From Coprothermobacteraceae bacterium (lineage in GTDB: Bacteria > Coprothermobacterota > Coprothermobacteria > Coprothermobacterales > Coprothermobacteraceae): a stretch of 64,000 nucleotides of DNA. This document shows, in pieces, positions 3,823 to 41,073 of the stretch. The notes beneath the pieces are model-generated. The model saw only the letters and a program-made list of their open reading frames with translations. It was not told the DNA's origin and ran no database searches. How positions within the stretch are numbered: the stretch's first letter is position 1; each line of letters starts with the position of its first letter. The position numbers were made by a program, and so were the translations under genes. The DNA is taken from contig JABLWY010000001.1 of assembly GCA_013178255.1 (NCBI GenBank), forward strand, positions 364,503 through 428,502. Reading direction: 5' to 3'.

Positions 3823-4453
3823 TATAAACTTGGGTTCCAATGGACCTTCATTGGTCCAGCTAGTGGTCCTTTTCACCTTTCTTTCGCTAGCTCCGTCTTT
3901 TCTAATGTTTTTCACAAGTTTCCTCAGGTTGCTTGTGGTTTTTGGTTTCATGCGAACGGCGTTGGGGCTTCAGCAATTCCCTCCAGCTCAAGTTTTCACT
4001 GCGTTGGCTTTAATACTCACCTTCATGATCATGGCACCTGTATTCACCACGGCTTACAACGAAGCGTGGTTACCGTATGTTCAGGGAAATCTCTCTTTCG
4101 AGCAATTCGTGGAAAAAGCACAAGCACCTTTTTCTGACTGGATGCTAAAACAGGTCAGAGCTGACGAGCTCAAACTTATGGCATCGGTGTCCAACGACGA
4201 TCCCCAGAATCCCAGGTTTACCACCTTGGCTAGTGCGTTCATGCTCAGCGAATTGAAGACTGCGTTTGCTATGGGGTTGCTTCTTTATTTGCCGTTCATA
4301 GTCTTAGATGTGGTTACCGCATCGGTTCTTATGTCTTTGGGCATGTTCATGATACCCCCTGCCATGATCAGTTTGCCATTGAAGATACTGTTGTTCGTGG
4401 CAGCAAATGGATGGGATACAGTGATAATGGGGTTGGTTAGGAGCTTCCGATGA
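3797..4453 (+). CDS. fliP: Flagellar export apparatus protein FliP
   Basis: 218 aa polytopic membrane protein. Has the FliP-like FTSFLRLLVVFGFMRTALG and MSLGMFMIPP motifs. Confidence 0.9.
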   Translation: MQNATSLISINLGSNGPSLVQLVVLFTFLSLAPSFLMFFTSFLRLLVVFGFMRTALGLQQFPPAQVFTALALILTFMIMAPVFTTAYNEAWLPYVQGNLSFEQFVEKAQAPFSDWMLKQVRADELKLMASVSNDDPQNPRFTTLASAFMLSELKTAFAMGLLLYLPFIVLDVVTASVLMSLGMFMIPPAMISLPLKILLFVAANGWDTVIMGLVRSFR

Positions 4454-12104: not shown

Positions 12105-13863
12105 TAACCTGTTCGCACAAAGATACGTTGTCTGTGTAGGATAACTCATGTCCGTCCGATAGTATCCTCAAGGGTTTGCGATCCAACACTCCCAGATCAT
12201 TCAGATAGGCCAACAGGCTTGCCAGCGTTTCGCCTTCGTCCACAGGTACCACAATGTTTTCAGAGCCCACGCTGACCTTTACCTTTGAGAAGGATACCTG
12301 TTTGTAGACAACTCCAGGCATGATGAAATCCGGTCCTTTAAGCCTTATCAGTTCCCTTTTCACCCTAGTCAAGTACTCTTCCAACTCTCTCCTCGTACTC
12401 GGGAAAAACCTGAGCTTGACGCCTGGCACGGGTGCAGAGATAACCCTACCTTTATCATCCACCAAGGAAATAGGGACCCTCTCCCGTGTGTTTGTTTCAA
12501 TAATCACATAAAAATCAGACTTGATAGAACGTCCTAACCTCTCCACTACAATCTCGTCGCCATCACCTACTTGGTCCTCAGCAAGCGCTGCGCGGCCATT
12601 GACCCTGTACTCCAGCTCATTTTCCTCATGCACAACTAGATCTTCCGTATCTGAACCTACCTTGACCTGTAGCAGGATGGTTTCACGATCCAAGAGTCTT
12701 TCTAAGTCCAGCTCTGCTCTACGTAAGGCTGATTCGACGGTAGGTCTTTCATATCTTAAGAAGTAAGCTGGTTTGTTCTGCACAAGGATCTTTGCCACGT
12801 TCCTTTCAGGTGATAGTCTGGCCAATCCTAACGCTACGGCCCATTCTGGTTTCTGCAACTCCCCTTCGGCTTTCAGCTTGGCAACGTGAACCATTTCGCT
12901 GGGTATGTCCAGAACTCTTGCTAGGTACTCCGCTAGCCTTGGGGTCAAGGACCCTCCTCCTACCAGTGCTACCGCTGACGGGGCTTTCTTGTCGTTGGCT
13001 TCAACTATTATGGCAGCTATCGTGTTTGCAAGGACTACAGATGCTTCTTCTATGCCCTTTAAGAGATCTTCTTTCCTTATGTTTACGGCCTTCCCTACCA
13101 CGTTGAGCACTTTCTGCGACTTAGGTCTTACTTTGAGTCTTTCTGCTACGTCGATGGGAATCATGAATTTCTGACTCAGGAACTGCGTTACGAAATCTCC
13201 GGCCATAGCCACTGATGAGAAGTTGTATACAGCTCCATCACGAAATACAGTTACGTCTGAAGTACCAGCTCCTACATCCACCAGGGCTATGTTGAAATAG
13301 CGTAGCTCAGGTGGTACAGCTGCTTCTTTGCTTGCCACTGCTTCGCTGGATATGCTCCAGATCTCCAAACCAGTATCTTTGACAGCTTTGATGAGCGATA
13401 ACACAGTGTCCTTGCGGAAGAATTGTAGAACTACCCTGGCTCTCAATTCTTTGCCATGCCTACCTACGGGGTTGGATACAGTCATATCGTCTAGTAACCA
13501 CTTAGACACATCGAAGTCTGCCAACAGGTATCCTTCAATGTGAGCGTTCCTCGTAACGTCTAGCAATAAGGACAAGACGTCATTCTCCTTGACAAACTCT
13601 CCTTGGATCGTTTTTCTTCCTTCTACGACTCGCACGGCCATACTCTTCCCGGCTACTGCCAATGCAACAGGCAGTGTCATGTCTAGGCCACTCCTCTCTA
13701 AGAAAAGTGACAGTTCTTTAGTGGCCATAGGTACGTTTTCCACTTGTCCGTCTCTCAGCACAGCGAACGCATGTTTAAGAGAGGCATGCCGTGCAATTTG
13801 CCCGTCCCTGACTTCCAAGGCAGCGAACTTGTGAGTGCCGATGTCAAGGGCCAAGAAGTTCAT
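12067..13863 (-). CDS. FtsA/PilM-like actin-fold ATPase with about 200 aa C-terminal extension (two predicted beta-grasp-like modules)
   Basis: Actin-fold ATPase motifs: LALDIGTHKFAAL (phosphate 1), NIALVDVGAGTSDVTVF (phosphate 2), ALVGGGSLTPRLAEYLARVLDIP (adenosine motif). The extra C-terminal region holds two ThiS/MoaD-like segments (…YRVNGRAALAEDQVGDGDEIVV… and …VSVGSENIVVPVDEGETLASLL…ILSDGHEL…VTILYD). ATGA overlap with the upstream FapA gene. 3' end overlaps the cheR 3' end by 38 bp. Confidence 0.6.
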   Translation of the reverse strand: MNFLALDIGTHKFAALEVRDGQIARHASLKHAFAVLRDGQVENVPMATKELSLFLERSGLDMTLPVALAVAGKSMAVRVVEGRKTIQGEFVKENDVLSLLLDVTRNAHIEGYLLADFDVSKWLLDDMTVSNPVGRHGKELRARVVLQFFRKDTVLSLIKAVKDTGLEIWSISSEAVASKEAAVPPELRYFNIALVDVGAGTSDVTVFRDGAVYNFSSVAMAGDFVTQFLSQKFMIPIDVAERLKVRPKSQKVLNVVGKAVNIRKEDLLKGIEEASVVLANTIAAIIVEANDKKAPSAVALVGGGSLTPRLAEYLARVLDIPSEMVHVAKLKAEGELQKPEWAVALGLARLSPERNVAKILVQNKPAYFLRYERPTVESALRRAELDLERLLDRETILLQVKVGSDTEDLVVHEENELEYRVNGRAALAEDQVGDGDEIVVERLGRSIKSDFYVIIETNTRERVPISLVDDKGRVISAPVPGVKLRFFPSTRRELEEYLTRVKRELIRLKGPDFIMPGVVYKQVSFSKVKVSVGSENIVVPVDEGETLASLLAYLNDLGVLDRKPLRILSDGHELSYTDNVSLCEQVTILYDKNRGSTA

Positions 13864-15440
13864 TTCATCACCACTCGTGGTATGGGAGGCGGTGACGTAT
13901 ATGGATAGAACCGTATTTCTCCGTTTTCGTAGACAAACAGGACGTAAGAAAGTTCCGACCTGACCAAGTAGGAAGCGGCTCCGAACCTTATTTCAACGTT
14001 TGGGTACAACTTCTCTTTGATGAAAATCCTCGCCTTCTTTAGTTCTTCCTGTCTTTGATTGAGCAAGTCCTTAAGATGCTCATTTAGCCGATCTGTGTCC
14101 CTTTCCAAAATCGCAATTTCCTCATCGTACAGTTTCGCCATGCTTGGTGATTTCTTAGTTAGGGCCTCTAGTTCGCGTAGCCGTGCCTTCTTAGCGGAGA
14201 TGGCTTCCACTACGCGTTTGTATTCCGCTGTCAGTTTCTCAGGCTCAACGATTTGCAGCTCCACTCTTTCCGCTAGGTCGTTGCCGACAATAGGCGCTAC
14301 CACTATGTGTTCAGCGCGTATCGTCGCGCCAGAGACCCTTGCTTTGGGGTGTACCAAGTACAGATCGCGGCACTCTACTTTACTAAACAAGACACCAGTT
14401 TCCGCCACCACCAAAGGTGCCTTTACCGTTGCATGTATCAGCTGCCGCGCTATGACTGCGTTTCCAGCTTCCAACAGGGCTTTGCCATTTCCTGCTACCA
14501 CACCGTCTACCTTGATGTTCTGCCCTGCTACTAGCTTCGCTCCCTCTACCACGCCGTGCACATGGATGTTTACCTTGGAGTTCACAGAGAAGCCTTCCCT
14601 AACTGTGCCAAAGATTTGAACCGTCTCTACTACGCCTTCGATGTTACCCGTATGGTAGTCCACGTCCCCAGATACGTTGAGGATCGAGGAGACGCTAATC
14701 CTATTTCCTTCACGGATAACAACGCCGTCTGACTTGGCCACAATTCTTAGTCCATCATCCGTGACCTCCGTGCCGCGACCCGCGATGCGCCGAAGGTCTA
14801 TATCCATGCCATCTTTGGCTGTAAGTGTCTGCCCCGTCACGGTAAACCCAGGTTTGCCTTTGGTGGCTGGCGTCTTCTCCACTAACACCGTTCCCGCGCT
14901 CACGTAGTCCCATTTCGACATGAGTTCTCTGAAGTCAATGTGGCTTTGGTCCTGGTCTATCTCCACAGGACGTTGGTAAACCCACGCAAGTTGCGCGTCT
15001 TGCCCCTTTTCGGGCGGCAGACCTTTTGCTATCATTACTCGCTGAAGCGGGTGCTCCAATACATCTTTTGCCACGTCTATTTCCACACCAACTATTCCGT
15101 TAGATCTAATGCTGTCTAACAGCTCCTGAGGGGTTAACTGAAACGTGCAGAAACCTGGTAGGTACGTAGCATATGCTGCAAGCTTGTCCTCATCAATCTC
15201 GACGATTAACTCAGGGGGAACAGGATCTGTACTTATAGTGAACCATTGGCCAGGGTTCTTTATAGCCTGGATGATAGCGTCTGGAAAAGTGACCTTTAGC
15301 CTGACTCTTGACAAGCTTGCTATAACGCGCGTGGGAGGCACGCCTGCCTCATCTACTTTTATCTCCACCTTGTCGTTTTGACAACGCAGTTTCAAGCCGT
15401 CAAGGGTCAACTCAAAATGCTCAGTAGTGTCATTACTCAT
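13860..15440 (-). CDS. FapA-like flagellar assembly protein (DUF342)
   Basis: 526 aa. Central G/V-rich beta-helix-like repeats (GNIEGVVETVQIFGTVREGFSVNSKVNIHVHGVVEGAKLVAGQNIKVDGVVAGNGKALLEAGNAVIA). C-terminal coiled coil (…KKARLRELEALTKK…LKDLLNQRQEELKKARIF), as in the DUF342/FapA family. Confidence 0.65.
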   Translation of the reverse strand: MSNDTTEHFELTLDGLKLRCQNDKVEIKVDEAGVPPTRVIASLSRVRLKVTFPDAIIQAIKNPGQWFTISTDPVPPELIVEIDEDKLAAYATYLPGFCTFQLTPQELLDSIRSNGIVGVEIDVAKDVLEHPLQRVMIAKGLPPEKGQDAQLAWVYQRPVEIDQDQSHIDFRELMSKWDYVSAGTVLVEKTPATKGKPGFTVTGQTLTAKDGMDIDLRRIAGRGTEVTDDGLRIVAKSDGVVIREGNRISVSSILNVSGDVDYHTGNIEGVVETVQIFGTVREGFSVNSKVNIHVHGVVEGAKLVAGQNIKVDGVVAGNGKALLEAGNAVIARQLIHATVKAPLVVAETGVLFSKVECRDLYLVHPKARVSGATIRAEHIVVAPIVGNDLAERVELQIVEPEKLTAEYKRVVEAISAKKARLRELEALTKKSPSMAKLYDEEIAILERDTDRLNEHLKDLLNQRQEELKKARIFIKEKLYPNVEIRFGAASYLVRSELSYVLFVYENGEIRFYPYTSPPPIPRVVMK

Positions 15441-16962: not shown

Positions 16963-17676
16963 TTGGTAGAAATAAGCGGCTTGACAAAACGATTTGGAAA
17001 TGTTCAAGCATTAGCTGGCATCAGCTTGAGGGCTGAACCTGGTAAAGTCACAGGGCTTTTGGGCCCAAACGGGGCAGGAAAGACCACGACCATTCGCATA
17101 CTAAGCACCATTCTCAGGGCAGACGCTGGGACTGCCAAAGTGAACGGATTTGACGTTGAACGTGAGCAGGATAAGGTCAGGGCATCCATGGGCGTGGTTT
17201 TTGAGAACTCCGGGTTATACAGGAGGCTTACCGGCACTGAGAATGTACTCTACTTCGCTGACTTGGCAGGAGTTCCGAGGAGCCGAGCTTTGAAGGTGTT
17301 GGAAGAACTTTACGCACTTCTGGATGTGGATTTTGGTGACCGTTTGGCAGTTGGCTATTCCAGGGGTATGGCTCAGAAGATTAACTTGATCAGGGCCGTC
17401 GTACATGACCCTCCTGTGGTGGTCTTGGACGAACCCACCGCTGGTCTCGATGTTCCTAGCACCTTAGCTGTCAGGTCCTTCATTGAAAAGCAGAAGGAGA
17501 AGGGGAAAACCGTGCTTCTGAGCACACACCTCATGAATGAAGTAGAGATGCTGTGTGACTACGTCTTCATCATCAACAAAGGCGTCATAGCCGTAGAGGG
17601 GACTCCCTCAGGCATAAAGCGAGACTTGGGCGCTGCCAATTTGGAAGAAGCCTTCATGAAGGCGGTGAAAGAATGA
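16963..17676 (+). CDS. ABC transporter ATP-binding protein (ABC-2 subfamily)
   Basis: Walker A LLGPNGAGKTTT, ABC signature YSRGMAQK, Walker B VVVLDEPTAGLD. TTG start with RBS GGAGGTG. Confidence 0.85.
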   Translation: MVEISGLTKRFGNVQALAGISLRAEPGKVTGLLGPNGAGKTTTIRILSTILRADAGTAKVNGFDVEREQDKVRASMGVVFENSGLYRRLTGTENVLYFADLAGVPRSRALKVLEELYALLDVDFGDRLAVGYSRGMAQKINLIRAVVHDPPVVVLDEPTAGLDVPSTLAVRSFIEKQKEKGKTVLLSTHLMNEVEMLCDYVFIINKGVIAVEGTPSGIKRDLGAANLEEAFMKAVKE

Positions 17677-18854
17677 ACCCTGTTTTAGCTGTACTCAAGA
17701 AAGAACTTAAAGAGGCTCTCAGGGATCGTCGTACGCTGATCATGAGCATCATACTGCCGGCTGTGTTAGTACCCGCCCTCATATTGGGCATCTTCTACTT
17801 CATGGACACTACGGAGAGAAACGCCACGAAGACTGGTTTCACTGTGGCCTATAGCGGTAGTGCCCAGTTAGAGGCGTTCCTTGTGCAGGCAGGGGTGAAG
17901 GTGGAGAAACCGGTCAGTGTGCAAGACGCCGTCTTGTCTAAGAAGGCGGACGTGGGGTTAATCGAGAAGGTGGAAGGCGGCACAGAGGTGGTGACGATCC
18001 TGAAATCTTACGCGTCAGGAGCTAAGGGTGACTCCGCAGCAGCTCAGCTGAGGGCTCTATTGGAAGTTTACAAGCAGTACCGCATTGGTGAGTACCTTCG
18101 TTCAAAAGGTTTGGAAGAAGACGTCTTTTCTATGGTCAAGGTAGAAACTGCTTCAGTAGGGGATCCCGTGTCTTTTGTCAAGTACATGATTGCTTACATC
18201 CTGTCTTTGATGCTGTTAGCTATAGGATTTGTGGGGAACGTGTACTTGGGAACCGACGTGGGTGCAGGAGAGAAAGAGCGGGGCACGCTGGAACCTCTCT
18301 TGGCAACACCTGCTAACAGGCTGACGCTAGCTGTGGGTAAATGGCTTGCCCTTTCTACTTTGAACTTCGCTGCAACGCTCATAACTGTGACATCGTTTGC
18401 CCTAACTTACACGTATGCTCTCACGCATTTCAGTTTGGGCAGCCCCTCATTGGGTCATTCTGTCTCAGTCTTCGAAGTTTGGGGTTCAGGCATATGGGCA
18501 ATGGTCATTGGCGCCCTGCTGCTGGCTGTGAGCGGAGCTGCACTGCAGTTCATGATATCCATGTACAGTCGAAATATGAGGGAAGCGCAACTCTACCTGG
18601 GCCAGTTAGGTATGGTGGTACTGCCGTTTGTGTTTATTATCATGCCTAGCCTGACTAACGCTACGGCTATTCCAAATTGGGGGTACTACATCCCCATCAT
18701 CAATGCCTCGGTGGTGGTCTACAACGTTATCACAGGCAATGTTGTCTCTTCCCTCGTTTGGGTGGCTTTGGCCATGGATGTGGTGGTGGCACTGTTGCTG
18801 GCAGTACTCATAAGCAAATTTATGGATCGTGAGAGTGTAATATTGCGTTCCTAA
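17673..18854 (+). CDS. ABC-2 family transporter permease (NatB-like)
   Basis: 393 aa. N-terminal TM helix, a large extracytoplasmic loop, then five TM helices. 4 nt overlap with the ATPase gene. Confidence 0.75.
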   Translation: MNPVLAVLKKELKEALRDRRTLIMSIILPAVLVPALILGIFYFMDTTERNATKTGFTVAYSGSAQLEAFLVQAGVKVEKPVSVQDAVLSKKADVGLIEKVEGGTEVVTILKSYASGAKGDSAAAQLRALLEVYKQYRIGEYLRSKGLEEDVFSMVKVETASVGDPVSFVKYMIAYILSLMLLAIGFVGNVYLGTDVGAGEKERGTLEPLLATPANRLTLAVGKWLALSTLNFAATLITVTSFALTYTYALTHFSLGSPSLGHSVSVFEVWGSGIWAMVIGALLLAVSGAALQFMISMYSRNMREAQLYLGQLGMVVLPFVFIIMPSLTNATAIPNWGYYIPIINASVVVYNVITGNVVSSLVWVALAMDVVVALLLAVLISKFMDRESVILRS

Positions 18855-18872
18855 GGGGGCATGTGTTATAAT
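18843..18872 (+). promoter_or_regulatory. Candidate sigma-A promoter with extended -10 (TTGCGT -35 at 18843-18848, TGtTATAAT at 18864-18872)
   Basis: TATAAT at 18867-18872 is preceded by TG at 18864-18865. The -35-like TTGCGT sits at an 18 bp spacing. Drives the GC-rich leader described next. Confidence 0.45.
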
Positions 18873-18879
18873 AACTATG

Positions 18880-19027
18880 CCTGCCGTGTGCGTGGGACGG
18901 GGCAGGAGCGCATCCAACAGATGCGTCTTGGGAGCCCGAATCCACCCGCTTCGGCGGTTGGAGGGAGGCGCCCACTTGGGTGCCGGGACGCGGCTTCCTG
19001 ACCCCTTACGGCACGGTGGGCTTTTTT
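18880..19027 (+). ncRNA. Structured GC-rich leader RNA or small RNA with terminator/antiterminator alternative upstream of ytxG (possible riboswitch or attenuator)
   Basis: About 148 nt and far more GC-rich than its flanks. Contains a CCGC-UUCG-GCGG tetraloop hairpin (18946-18957). A local hairpin GGCGCCCACUUGGGUGCC (18967-18984) is mutually exclusive with a long-range stem: GCCCAC/GUGCCG pairs with CGGCAC/GUGGGC at 19009-19021, followed by U6 at 19022-19027. The downstream RBS GGGGAGG begins 1 nt after the U-tract. Confidence 0.4.
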
Positions 19028-19042
19028 GGGGAGGTGTTAGTT

Positions 19043-19405
19043 TTGACCAACTGGCAGGTCTTTTTCATTGCATTTCCTTTGTGGGTGTTTGCCGTCGGTA
19101 CCGTAGTCATGTTGGCTCTCATTCTTTCGGTTATGACTAAATACGGCAGGGAACTGCAGAAGAGCTTAGAGGATATTCAAAAGGACATTAAAACTATGAC
19201 GCTCAGCGCAGCTCAGGAAGTGCCGAGCATGCTCAAGAATGTCAATGAAACTACCGCCCACATTAAGGATATGACGCAGAACCTATCGCAGCTTACAGCG
19301 GTGTTACCTCTAGTCATAAGGCCAAGCTTGGGAAGCTTGGCGATCAAGGCTGTGCCTTCTATAATGGGTCTTGTGAATAGTCTAAGAAAAAGGAAGGGTA
19401 AATAG
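19043..19405 (+). CDS. DUF948 (YtxG-like) membrane-anchored general stress protein
   Basis: N-terminal TM helix then a coiled region (…KYGRELQKSLEDIQKDIKTMTLSAAQEV…NETTAHIKDMTQNLSQL) typical of DUF948. TTG start 8 nt after GGAGG. The longer ORF from 18980 was rejected because it runs through the structured RNA. Confidence 0.55.
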   Translation: MTNWQVFFIAFPLWVFAVGTVVMLALILSVMTKYGRELQKSLEDIQKDIKTMTLSAAQEVPSMLKNVNETTAHIKDMTQNLSQLTAVLPLVIRPSLGSLAIKAVPSIMGLVNSLRKRKGK

Positions 19406-19426
19406 TGGCATAAGGAGGTGAGCCTA

Positions 19427-19636
19427 ATGGTTCATAGGGACCGCGGTGACCTGCTGCGCGACTTGATCATGATCAAAATAGGTGCCGTAGGGGGTTTTGT
19501 TCTGGGCTTCGCTCTCGGTGGCATACTTGTGCACTTGGCTCACAAGAAGCTGATGGAGTGCACATATTTGGAGGATTGGGAGGAGGAACTCCCTGAAGAA
19601 ACCTGCGAAGAAGAGAAGACCAAAGAGGAGAAATAG
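19427..19636 (+). CDS. Small glycine-zipper membrane protein with acidic C-terminal tail
   Basis: GAVGGFVLGFALGGILV glycine-zipper TM segment followed by an E-rich tail. ATG 10 nt after AAGGAGG. Confidence 0.4.
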   Translation: MVHRDRGDLLRDLIMIKIGAVGGFVLGFALGGILVHLAHKKLMECTYLEDWEEELPEETCEEEKTKEEK

Positions 19637-19666
19637 GCCAATGACTCCTCGAAAGGAGGCTAGCAT

Positions 19667-19921
19667 ATGGAGGATGTGAAGAAGCTTTTCTGTGTGTTTA
19701 GTGCGTTTGTTGCAGGGGTCGTAGTTGGTGCAGCCGCTGGTTTGTTCTTGGCTCCTATGAAGGGCGAGGAACTGCAGGAGATAACAAAAGAAAAAGCTTT
19801 GGAACTCAAGGAAGCAGCTCTCAAAAAAGCGGAAGAACTCAAGAAAAAGGCCGAGGAACTGTCCAAGAAGGCGGAAGAAATAGTCAGCGAACCTGCCATC
19901 GAGATAGATCAGGAACCCTGA
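19667..19921 (+). CDS. YtxH-like protein (Gly-zipper helix plus K/E-rich coiled coil)
   Basis: …FVAGVVVGAAAGLFLAPMKGEE… followed by KKAEELKKKAEELSKKAEE, the YtxH-family pattern. RBS AAAGGAGG. Confidence 0.55.
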   Translation: MEDVKKLFCVFSAFVAGVVVGAAAGLFLAPMKGEELQEITKEKALELKEAALKKAEELKKKAEELSKKAEEIVSEPAIEIDQEP

Positions 19922-39212: not shown

Positions 39213-40614
39213 ATGGCTTTTGAGGATCTGATGATCAACTGGAAAAACGGCCACCTCAAGGTGGATGCTGAGGTCAAGAGTGCTATCGAGGGGTTTGCCA
39301 AGGACTACATGGAGTTCATTGGGCGTTCCAAGACAGAGAGAGAATCTGTGGATGAATCAGTGAATTTGGCGGTCCGGCAAGGCTTTGTTAGGGTTGCTGA
39401 GCTTCAGGCTTGGGAAAGTGGCGCCAAAGTATACTGCGTTAACCGTGGTAAGAGTGCCATCTTTGCCGTACTAGGTAAGAAGCCAGCTACCGAGGGCGTG
39501 AACATAGTTGTGGCTCACGTAGACGCCCCCGAGGCTTGACCTGAAGCCGAGGCCCATCAAAGAGGACGAGCAAATCGCAATATTGGAAACCCACTACTAT
39601 GGAGGTATTAAGAACTTCCAATGGGTGTCTACCCCGCTCGCCCTACACGGTGTCGTAGCAAAGACTGACGGTACCGTGGTCAAGATTGCCATAGGTGAGA
39701 AAGACGACGATCCCGTATTTGTAATTCCTGACATACTCCCACATTTGGGACGCAAGATCCAAATGAGTAAGAGCATGGATGAGGCCATCCCGGGTGAGTC
39801 ATTGGACGTCATAGTGGGCTCAGAGCCTCTAAAGGACGAGGAGAAAGAGCCTGTAAAGAAACACATATTAAAACTGCTCAACGACATGTACGGCATCACT
39901 GAGGCCGACTTCTTATCGGCTGAATTGGAAATAGTCCCTGCCCTCAAGCCTCGGGAAGTAGGCTTGGACAGGGCTTTGATAGGGGCATACGGCCAAGATG
40001 ACCGAGTGTGTGCGTACACTGCGCTAAGAGCCCTGTTTGACCTCGATGAGGTGCCAGAGAAGACGGCTGTCGTGATAATAGCTGACAAAGAGGAAATTGG
40101 TTCTGTTGGGAACACGGGTATGGAATCAGCTTTCGTTGATCGCTTCATGAGCAAGCTGCTATCTTTGAGCAAGCCACAGTTTACTCCTTTGGACTTACAT
40201 ATGGCTTGGAATAAGACTCAGGTTCTGTCAGCTGACGTTACGGCTGCCGTAGATCCAATTTGGAAGAGCGTGCACGAGATGCAGAATGCTGCTCGTTTGC
40301 ACTACGGCCCTGTTATCACTAAGTACACGGGCAGCAGAGGCAAGTACAGTGCCAACGACGCCCACGCAGAATTCGTGGCAAAAGTAAGGAACGTGCTGGA
40401 CGCAGAAGGCGTAATATGGCAGATGGCAGAGTTGGGCAAGGTTGACGAGGGTGGTGGCGGTACAGTGGCTCTCTTCATGGCTAATAGAGGTGCTGATGTG
40501 GTAGATATAGGAGTCGCCCTTCTCGGCATGCACTCGCTGTTCGAGATTTCAAGTAAGTTGGACGTCTACTTTACCTATAAGGCTGACTTAGCGTTCTTTA
40601 AGAGGATGGCCTAA
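39213..40614 (+). pseudogene. M18-family aminopeptidase (aspartyl aminopeptidase-like), disrupted by a +1 frameshift in a C5 homopolymer at 39526-39530
   Basis: Frame 0 (39213-39539) ends …NIVVAHVDAPEA*. Frame +1 continues from 39532 with RLDLKPRPIKEDEQIAILETHYYGG… Joined, the two give the M18 consensus (HTDSP.LRLKP … YGG…W.DR.L). Downstream M18 motifs are present (IADKEEIGSVG, EGGGGTVALF…VDIGVALLGMHSLFE). Removing one C restores a protein of about 467 aa. Confidence 0.8.
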
Positions 40615-40616
40615 GT

Positions 40617-40646
40617 AAAAAGGGGGGCCCTTAGGGCCCCCTTTTT
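40617..40646. terminator. Bidirectional intrinsic terminator (A5-GGGGGCCC-UUA-GGGCCCCC-U5) between the aminopeptidase gene and the convergent marR gene
   Basis: 8 bp G/C stem flanked by an A-tract and a T-tract. Confidence 0.8.
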
Positions 40647-41073
40647 AAAACTTCAAAGACTCTCGTATAACTCTTATGGCGTCAAGAAGTTTGTCCCGCT
40701 GTGTGGGGCTGAGTTCTTCCAATCTATTGCTAAGGACCTTCAGGAAACACTCTTTGCTATTGGCTAATACCTCTTGTCCTTCTGGCGTGACTTCCACGAG
40801 CACAAGCCTGCGGTCTCTCTCTTCGTCTTTAAAGCGCCTAACGTAACCCTTCTCCACTAAACGGTCCACGTGCGGAGTCAAGCCACCCATGGTGACCACC
40901 AAAGATTCGGCTAGATCGGACATCTTGCATGGTCCAATCCGCGAAAGCTCATCCAGGATCTTTATGTCAGTAAGGCCCAACACTACTTCTTCAAGAGAGC
41001 CACCCAACAGCCTCTTGAAGCGCCTTGGTAACTGCATGTACAGGTCAAACAGTTCTTTAGACAAATCCTTCAT
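40645..41073 (-). CDS. MarR-family transcriptional regulator
   Basis: 142 aa with a winged-HTH MarR pattern (…LTPTQRDKLL…/…ILDELSRIGPCKMSDLAESLVVTMGGLTPHVDRLVEKGYVRR). Confidence 0.8.
   Translation of the reverse strand: MKDLSKELFDLYMQLPRRFKRLLGGSLEEVVLGLTDIKILDELSRIGPCKMSDLAESLVVTMGGLTPHVDRLVEKGYVRRFKDEERDRRLVLVEVTPEGQEVLANSKECFLKVLSNRLEELSPTQRDKLLDAIRVIRESLKF

Follow-up and report, generated by a model that had tools for sequence, protein, structure and literature searches.

We analysed a 64,000-nt stretch of DNA (hereafter the window) from contig JABLWY010000001.1 of an uncultured Coprothermobacteraceae bacterium. The GC-rich segment at 18879–19021 on the + strand (to 19027 with its U tail) is very probably a gene for 6S RNA (ssrS). 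Few bacterial small RNAs (sRNAs) are better known than 6S RNA, which binds and dampens the housekeeping RNA polymerase. The copy in the window is a divergent ssrS ortholog. The family itself is already known, and the element is not a riboswitch. A first-pass annotation of the segment had proposed a riboswitch or attenuator of unknown class, with the reservation that Rfam might show a known element; the Rfam scan gave one, RF00013 (6S/SsrS).

Homology of the segment to 6S RNA

RF00013 aligned with 18875–19026 (+) across the full model (positions 1–187) at 34.7 bits when Rfam was scanned with an E-value threshold. The E-value was 1.8e-5 in the scan of the region and 0.0023 in the scan of the whole window, where 6S RNA was the top match. 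It was the sole notable Rfam match in the region and in the 64 kb, and the same scan found no second 6S candidate in the 64 kb. At the gathering threshold, Rfam returned no family anywhere in the 64 kb, so that the 6S match surfaced only with the E-value threshold. The alignment takes in the conserved 6S blocks CCUGC.GUGU.CGU, GGGAGC, GC.CCCAC.UGG and ACGGCAC.G.GGG, that is, sequence as well as pairing. The gene was delimited as follows.

18879–19021, + strand: 6S RNA (ssrS) core, 143 nt (149 nt with the U tail), from the RF00013 alignment and the ortholog profile

An nhmmer profile of eight orthologs that pass the Rfam cut-off, from which the window copy was excluded, matched the window at a single place, 18877–19027, with E = 2.1e-31. 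Full-length identity to the orthologs and the same flanking genes, both described below, agree with this match in identifying the segment as 6S RNA. A literature search on 6S RNA in Coprothermobacter found no paper.

Gene order and orthologs

The segment lies between a transporter gene and a group of small membrane protein genes.

16963–17676: ATPase of the permease, upstream of it
17673–18854, + strand: ABC-2 type (NatB-like) transporter permease (Pfam ABC2_membrane_2/3), the upstream neighbour and synteny anchor; its stop codon TAA is 18852–18854
19028–19405, + strand: Shine-Dalgarno sequence (SD) GGGGAGG (19028–19034) and a gene for a DUF948-like membrane protein (TTG 19043 to 19405, 120 aa; weak DUF948 match)
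19418–19921, + strand: remainder of the downstream operon, a small membrane open reading frame (ORF; 19418–19636) and a YtxH-like protein (19667–19921; Pfam YtxH, 56.7 bits)

The nearest named homologs of the permease are those of Coprothermobacter platensis and Coprothermobacter proteolyticus, with 59% identity. Both species have the gene order ABC ATPase, permease, a gap of about 190 nt, DUF948-like gene, small ORF and YtxH, followed by dnaJ and dnaK on the opposite strand. The gene order of the window is shared by all relatives that bear 6S RNA at the locus, and the order downstream of the DUF948-like gene is likewise kept in relatives. In all eight of the eight syntenic orthologs, the gap between the permease and DUF948-like genes held a 6S RNA above the Rfam cut-off (49.3–55.9 bits). 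RF00013 scored 54.1 bits in C. platensis and 49.5 bits in C. proteolyticus; three genomes from a genome collection, UBA10526, AS04akNAM_51 and bin13.1, gave 49.4, 50.7 and 49.5 bits, respectively, and three metagenomic lineages reached via the DUF948-like protein gave 49.3–55.9 bits. A DNA-pattern scan of metagenomes found five loci, of which two were new variants and none came from the lineage of the window. The comparison set comprised nine distinct sequences, with the window included.

The 6S core of the window was 77–78% identical in nucleotide sequence to the Coprothermobacter copies, and the flanking protein genes were 62–69% identical. The RNA is thus better conserved than its neighbours, and this and the z-score of its fold (−2.9, see below) point to a signal beyond chance. 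At the protein level, the syntenic products of the window were 47–85% identical to those of Coprothermobacter spp. The GC content was 50.5% in the window and 42–46% in the Coprothermobacter loci. The genome-collection scan found no permease more than 59% identical to that of the window, so no close relative of its lineage was at hand for comparison. Among distant permease homologs (35–38% identity; loci L008 and L013–L018, which include other Coprothermobacterota metagenome-assembled genomes, Bacterium 3DAC and Ca. Psychracetigena), no 6S RNA was found beside the permease, and these loci added no orthologs to the set. The synteny of 6S RNA, permease and DUF948-like gene is therefore confined to the Coprothermobacter-like clade.

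Predicted structure and covariation

Four features are named as defining the 6S family (PMC4064990): the closing stem, the terminal loop, the central bubble and the two G-C pairs that border the bubble at either edge. All of them were found in the RNA of the window.

18879–18905, + strand: 5' strand of the closing stem, pairing with 18998–19021, with a bulged G18890 and small internal loops (minimum free energy fold)
18907–18915, + strand: 5' strand of helix P2 (the downstream helix), pairing with 18986–18995, with two C-G pairs at the bubble edge (Rfam alignment)
18916–18929, + strand: 5' side of the central bubble, AACAGAUGCGUCUU, unpaired in the Rfam model alignment
18930–18973, + strand: internal stem P3 (GGG.GCC with GGC.CCC) and apical hairpin (Rfam alignment)
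18942–18961, + strand: apical hairpin CCACCCGC-UUCG-GCGGUUGG, part of the P3/apical segment
18974–18985, + strand: 3' side of the central bubble, ACUUGGGUGCCG, unpaired in the Rfam alignment
18998–19021, + strand: 3' strand of the closing stem (minimum free energy fold, pair probabilities and alignment)

Folding of 18875–19030 gave one long rod of −80.9 kcal/mol with a z-score of −2.9, in which the 5' end GCCUGCCGUGU.GCGUGG... pairs with the 3' end ...UUACGGCACGGUGGGC. The closing-stem pairs had probabilities above 0.99, giving the closed rod expected of 6S RNA. This dominant pairing of the two ends had been overlooked in the first reading of the segment. The closing-stem pairs were kept in all sequences, with G-C, A-U or G-U as the terminal pair and G-C or G-U as the fifth; the G-U pairs fix the strand as +. 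Each of the nine variants, folded alone, gave the same rod, with 16–17 pairs between the first and last 20 nt.

In the model alignment the bubble is open, with the caveat that energy minimisation partly closes it. As in 6S RNA, two G-C pairs border it at either edge: C18914-G18987 and C18915-G18986 towards P2, G18930-C18973 and G18931-C18972 towards P3. P2 pairs were 100% formable in seven sequences.

For the structure test we took a seven-sequence alignment (A3) and the canonical 6S structure, which was read off the Rfam alignment and lengthened in the closing stem in a lineage-specific way. In this alignment, 99.4% of cells were paired and seven pairs showed compensatory changes. None of 500 shuffles equalled this result, and slid structures were only 42–54% paired. 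In helix 1, the closing stem, pairing was 99.1%; one change was compensatory and three were one-sided. Covariation was concentrated in P3 and the apical hairpin, although the terminal pair of the closing stem varies too; helices 3–5, in the P3/apical segment, hold six pairs with two-sided changes. The apical hairpin varies in length, and MAFFT misaligned it in the alignment of all nine sequences (A4). We therefore folded each apical segment without an alignment and kept the pair counts from A3. The apical hairpin had the same fold in all nine variants, at −9.6 to −16.4 kcal/mol, despite eight different sequences (two were identical). The UUCG hairpin noted earlier (CCGC-UUCG-GCGG, 18946–18957) is present in the window, and a check of its covariation on the orthologs bore it out: the apical fold is conserved, the sequence differs and compensatory pairs are present.

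Promoter and base composition

A candidate promoter overlaps the end of the permease gene.

18843–18872, + strand: 6S promoter predicted from sequence, with a weak −35-like TTGCGT (18843–18848), an 18-nt spacer, TG (18864–18865) and TATAAT (18867–18872)

TTGCGT lies inside the end of the permease gene, and the extended −10 element TG-n-TATAAT (18864–18872), which the first-pass annotation had correctly spotted, sits 10–18 nt past the permease stop codon. TGnTATAAT was invariant in every ortholog displayed, always 7–8 nt ahead of the first base of the closing stem; the −35 spacing was not conserved among the orthologs. The element probably serves as the 6S promoter. From its position, transcription would start at G18879, which pairs with C19021.

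The GC content of 100-nt windows across 18850–19049 was 0.60–0.69, against 0.45–0.55 in the flanks. The GC-rich segment of about 148 nt described earlier is thus real; its core, 18879–19021, has 70.6% GC compared with 50.5% for the whole window. The U6 tract (19022–19027) and the GGGGAGG SD adjoin each other, as had also been noted. The first-pass annotation had offered an independent sRNA as a second option, and this proved right in outline, with a promoter of its own and a stem and U tract at the end, while its preferred riboswitch reading was not supported.

Assessment of the identification

Several points weigh against identifying the segment as 6S RNA. The window copy scored 11.7 bits under the RF00013 gathering score of 46.4 bits, which is an operational criterion and not a biological one. 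Measured from the promoter as far as the U tract, the RNA would be 143–149 nt long, at the lower end for a family of about 150–200 nt. The comparison set represents one family-level clade of nine variants with 89–92% mean column identity, and most closing-stem and P2 pairs are invariant in it; the covariation sits mainly in the apical stem. In thermodynamic folds the bubble is partly closed, by a hairpin in its 5' side in the window and by a collapse helix and a hairpin in its 3' side in the orthologs. The open bubble comes from the model alignment, as in most 6S RNAs, and the identification itself was made from sequence and predicted fold.

Such features could also be expected of a lineage-specific structured sRNA that came to resemble 6S RNA through convergence, for example another polymerase-binding RNA or an unrelated rod-shaped RNA. 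A score under the Rfam cut-off would fit convergence, as would a short and very GC-rich RNA, and GC-rich rods can draw weak covariance-model scores. However, eight syntenic orthologs that are 77–78% identical to the window copy pass the curated cut-off, the matches span conserved 6S sequence blocks and so go beyond pairing alone, and the 64 kb contain no other 6S candidate. We consider convergence very improbable. Sub-threshold 6S matches that are backed by synteny have been accepted before (PMC8414754).

The other alternative is the one first proposed, a riboswitch or attenuator of an undescribed class in which a hairpin at 18967–18984 competes with a 12-bp terminator stem and so controls the DUF948/YtxH genes. 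Both stems exist in the window. The local hairpin (7 bp) was worth −14.5 kcal/mol in isolation, and the long-range stem, in which 18970–18975 and 18980–18985 pair with 19009–19014 and 19016–19021 (12 bp), was worth −20.4 kcal/mol in isolation. A U6 tract directly follows the stem, and 10 of the 12 long-range pairs are still formable in the orthologs, one of them co-varying. As in riboswitch and attenuator platforms, the arm of the local hairpin can join a U-tract-flanked stem just before the SD. In the eight orthologs, however, the proposed mutually exclusive hairpins were unstable: the energy was −4.0 to −4.3 kcal/mol for the long-range stem and −0.3 to −0.7 kcal/mol for the local hairpin. 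The pair statistics of the two stems were no better than those of shuffles (158/500 and 66/500), and their covariation was not significant. In the full transcript of the window, the long-range stem had a probability near 0 and lost to the closing stem; forcing it cost 11.5 kcal/mol at 37 °C and 8.4 kcal/mol at 60 °C. Since the 5' and 3' ends pair with a probability above 0.99, the 12-bp stem is a minor alternative. The local hairpin, which joins 18967–18973 to the 3' side of the bubble, had a probability of 0.34–0.41 in the window. Because the competing stems are weak and shuffle-like in the orthologs, they do not form a conserved expression platform.

No riboswitch family was found at a useful score in the Rfam scan; the best match was a 12-nt SAM/SAH fragment with E = 2.6. 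Neither a known sensing domain nor conserved terminator/anti-terminator pairings were found. Unlike riboswitch and attenuator platforms, the element of the window has no conserved aptamer or alternative pairing; the whole forms a 6S rod, and its sequence is a full-length 6S RNA homolog. Both stems were tested by constrained folding and against the ortholog alignment, and the outcome led us to reject the riboswitch/attenuator reading, to which we assign only a slight chance.

A further feature was seen in the same part of the RNA. The 3'-side segment RCCCAC..GUG (18970–18985 with 19009–19021) mimics the 5' closing arm RCCUGCC..GUGUG. Where the final base of the RNA changes, the first base of the 3'-side GCCCAC changes too, in the same way as the opening base of the RNA, its true partner (A3 columns 6, 101 and 153). 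This co-changing segment may form a transient co-transcriptional hairpin that aids termination, or the co-change may be a coincidence.

Proposed mode of action

By homology, the 6S RNA of the window would act on the housekeeping RNA polymerase. Transcription from the conserved extended −10 promoter would start at the first base of the long closing stem, and the RNA would fold as a 6S rod made of the closing stem, P2, a central bubble of about 14 + 12 nt, P3 and the apical hairpin. The bubble would mimic an open promoter, and the sigma-A/sigma-70 holoenzyme would be bound and sequestered as growth slows. During outgrowth, the polymerase would use the 5' strand of the bubble as a template, starting at C18918 and producing a product RNA (pRNA) 5'-GUUGGAUGC... 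Synthesis of the pRNA would unwind P2, and the freed 3' strand (18987–18992) could then pair with the distal 5' bubble (18922–18927). Such a helix, of the Bacillus subtilis type, would collapse the bubble and release the enzyme.

C18918 aligns with the RF00013 model position that we take to be Escherichia coli U44, and the pRNA predicted from this template start would begin 5'-GUUGGAUGCGCUCC. The 5'-bubble sequence GCAUCCAACA was invariant across all sequences, and the first nine templating bases were invariant in all variants. The segment that may form the collapse helix is as follows.

18922–18927, + strand: distal 5'-bubble segment UGCGUC, which can pair with 18987–18992 (GACGCG), the 3' strand of P2

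RNAalifold predicted these six pairs in all seven sequences (columns 49–54 with 119–124). Alternative pairings of this kind are a normal part of 6S biology. In the orthologs, the 3' side of the bubble formed the hairpin CCUGU-GUG-ACAGG. In B. subtilis 6S-1 and in the 6S RNA of Aquifex aeolicus, a central bubble collapse helix is described as releasing the polymerase after pRNA synthesis (PMC8876501).

Comparison with known 6S RNAs

The window copy closely resembles the 6S genes of Coprothermobacter. It occupies the same locus between the NatB-like permease and DUF948-like/YtxH genes, behind the same extended −10 element, and it shares the closing stem, P2, the bubble sequences (GCAUCCAACA..UGCGUCUUGGGAGC, CCCAC) and the 3' end. 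Unlike the orthologs, it scores 34.7 bits against their 49–56 bits, has a shorter apical hairpin with a UUCG tetraloop, carries one or two extra single-base insertions or deletions in P1b/P2 and is richer in GC (70.6%). It also has the 5'-bubble hairpin (GCGCAUC/GAUGCGU) and the strong 3'-side hairpin, both of which the orthologs lack.

The pRNA of B. subtilis begins 5'-GUUCGG, and B. subtilis 6S-1 is about 190 nt long, so the window RNA, at about 145 nt, is shorter. The two RNAs share a G as the first base of the pRNA, which is predicted here to lie opposite a C within CCAAC, and a small hairpin on the 3' side of the bubble, which here occurs in the orthologs. A further likeness to B. subtilis 6S-1 and A. 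aeolicus 6S RNA (PMC8876501) is that, in all variants, the distal 5' bubble could form a helix of 6 bp with the 3' strand of P2; for the release mechanism, this likeness is known here from sequence and predicted folds. The genomic context is unlike that of B. subtilis, where rarA adjoins the 6S-1 locus (PMC8414754).

Linkage of the 6S gene to the downstream membrane protein genes

The first-pass annotation had named the downstream genes a ytxG-ytxH operon. Its third gene is a clear YtxH (56.7 bits), while the first matches DUF948 only weakly (21.2 bits; cut-off 37.2). The DUF948-like protein is 100% identical to NCBI HPY42_01945 (Coprothermobacteraceae bacterium, 120 aa). The 3' end of the 6S gene directly abuts the SD of this gene.

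19022–19027, + strand: U6 tract right after the closing stem, a probable site of intrinsic termination or of the 3' end, as judged by its sequence

The closing stem is separated by the 6 nt of the U tract from the SD and by 21 nt from the start codon. The adjacency of 6S RNA and SD, and the SD itself (GAGGGGAGG), were retained in all nine variants. The promoter scan and inspection, which covered the sigma-70 type only, found no sigma-70-like promoter between the 6S promoter and the DUF948 start. The leader-like position first ascribed to the segment is therefore reasonable, with no promoter found in between and with 6S genes known in 5' untranslated regions (UTRs), but the riboswitch role given to it is not.

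Besides encoding 6S RNA, the gene could be the obligatory 5' leader of the DUF948-like/small ORF/YtxH operon, an extension fully compatible with its identification that we put forward tentatively. Leaky termination or processing would then take place at the closing stem and U tract, and the stress-type membrane proteins would be expressed in proportion to the activity of the 6S promoter. The short distances from the stem to the SD and start codon, the lack of an intervening sigma-70-like promoter and the conservation of adjacency and SD in nine variants all argue for it. There are also precedents: in E. coli, 6S RNA and ygfA are transcribed together (PMC2848244), and in Coxiella the 5' UTR of ygfA contains ssrS (PMC4064990). 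The U tract itself bears on both sides. It is perfect in the window and in the lineage L094, where the closing stem and the U6 behind it make a possible intrinsic terminator, and U6 after such a very stable stem could terminate efficiently, which speaks against a leader. A simple terminator scanner is silent on this stem and U6 because the 'loop' is the whole 6S body. The other orthologs have degenerate, interrupted tracts (UUUGUUUU, UUUCUUU, UCACUUU and UCUCUUU), and this degeneracy in the C. proteolyticus group suggests weak termination there, in line with a leader. Against it also stand the restriction of the promoter scan to sigma-70-like promoters and a linkage that is comparable within Coprothermobacteraceae only. 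A search with the DUF948-like protein found seven proteins, all from this clade, so the linkage to 6S RNA can be tested only inside Coprothermobacteraceae.

As in ssrS-ygfA of E. coli and Coxiella, the 6S gene lies directly upstream of a protein gene on the same strand with no promoter found between them. Unlike there, the downstream genes encode a DUF948-like membrane protein, a small ORF and YtxH instead of 5-formyltetrahydrofolate cyclo-ligase, and co-transcription is putative. Transcription of the DUF948-like/YtxH operon through partial read-through from the 6S promoter appears to be the most economical reading of this arrangement, although our confidence in it is low. It is a little more doubtful still that, across Coprothermobacteraceae, 6S RNA is the only promoter-bearing leader of the operon, with the stem and U tract as a tunable terminator. 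Under that model, a transient hairpin of the window lineage (18970–19021), forming before the rod, might assist termination. If so, one promoter and one termination decision would set the output of both a global polymerase regulator and envelope stress proteins. The conserved linkage of 6S RNA, DUF948 and YtxH could then be a second case, after ssrS-ygfA, of a 6S RNA that shares a transcription unit with protein genes.

A sigma-70-like promoter match (TTGGCG, 17 nt, TATAAT) was observed at 19337–19365; it falls inside the DUF948-like gene, at its 3' end, and ahead of the ORF at 19418–19636.

Annotation of the locus and other observations in the window

The main value of these results lies in annotation. 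Since its score lies under the Rfam cut-off, the 6S gene of the window is probably unannotated, and pipelines that apply Rfam thresholds will pass over it; the analysis locates this gene in a genome of the Coprothermobacteraceae, a poorly sampled and thermophilic lineage, and strikes a candidate 'new riboswitch' off the list. A further gain is a 6S variant from a deep-branching group of thermophiles that is compact (about 145 nt) and GC-rich and for which collapse-helix chemistry is predicted.

Some gene callers extend the downstream ORF into the 6S gene. Logan gene calls start the DUF948-like ORF at GTG 18980 (141 aa), across the 3' third of the 6S RNA. In the NCBI protein and in every ortholog, the start is the codon next to the SD (TTG 19043), indicating that the 141-aa extension is an annotation artefact that masks the RNA gene. 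The identical sequence was present in two Logan assemblies, SRR6186653 and DRR873022.

Elsewhere in the 64 kb, no tRNA genes, tmRNA genes or tandem repeats were found. A weak match to the RmaA sRNA at 40594–40664 (−), with 30.5 bits (cut-off 57) and E = 0.28, is most likely due to chance. Outside the window, the distant locus L018 had a sub-threshold sraA-like match at 4171–4253 (39.9 bits; cut-off 56). A gene for FapA (flagellar assembly protein A domain) lies near the 6S locus at 13860–15440 (−). In the near-identical contig L002, a CheR methyltransferase gene is found at 1–590, and the genes upstream of the MscS-like gene are not in the same order as in the window.

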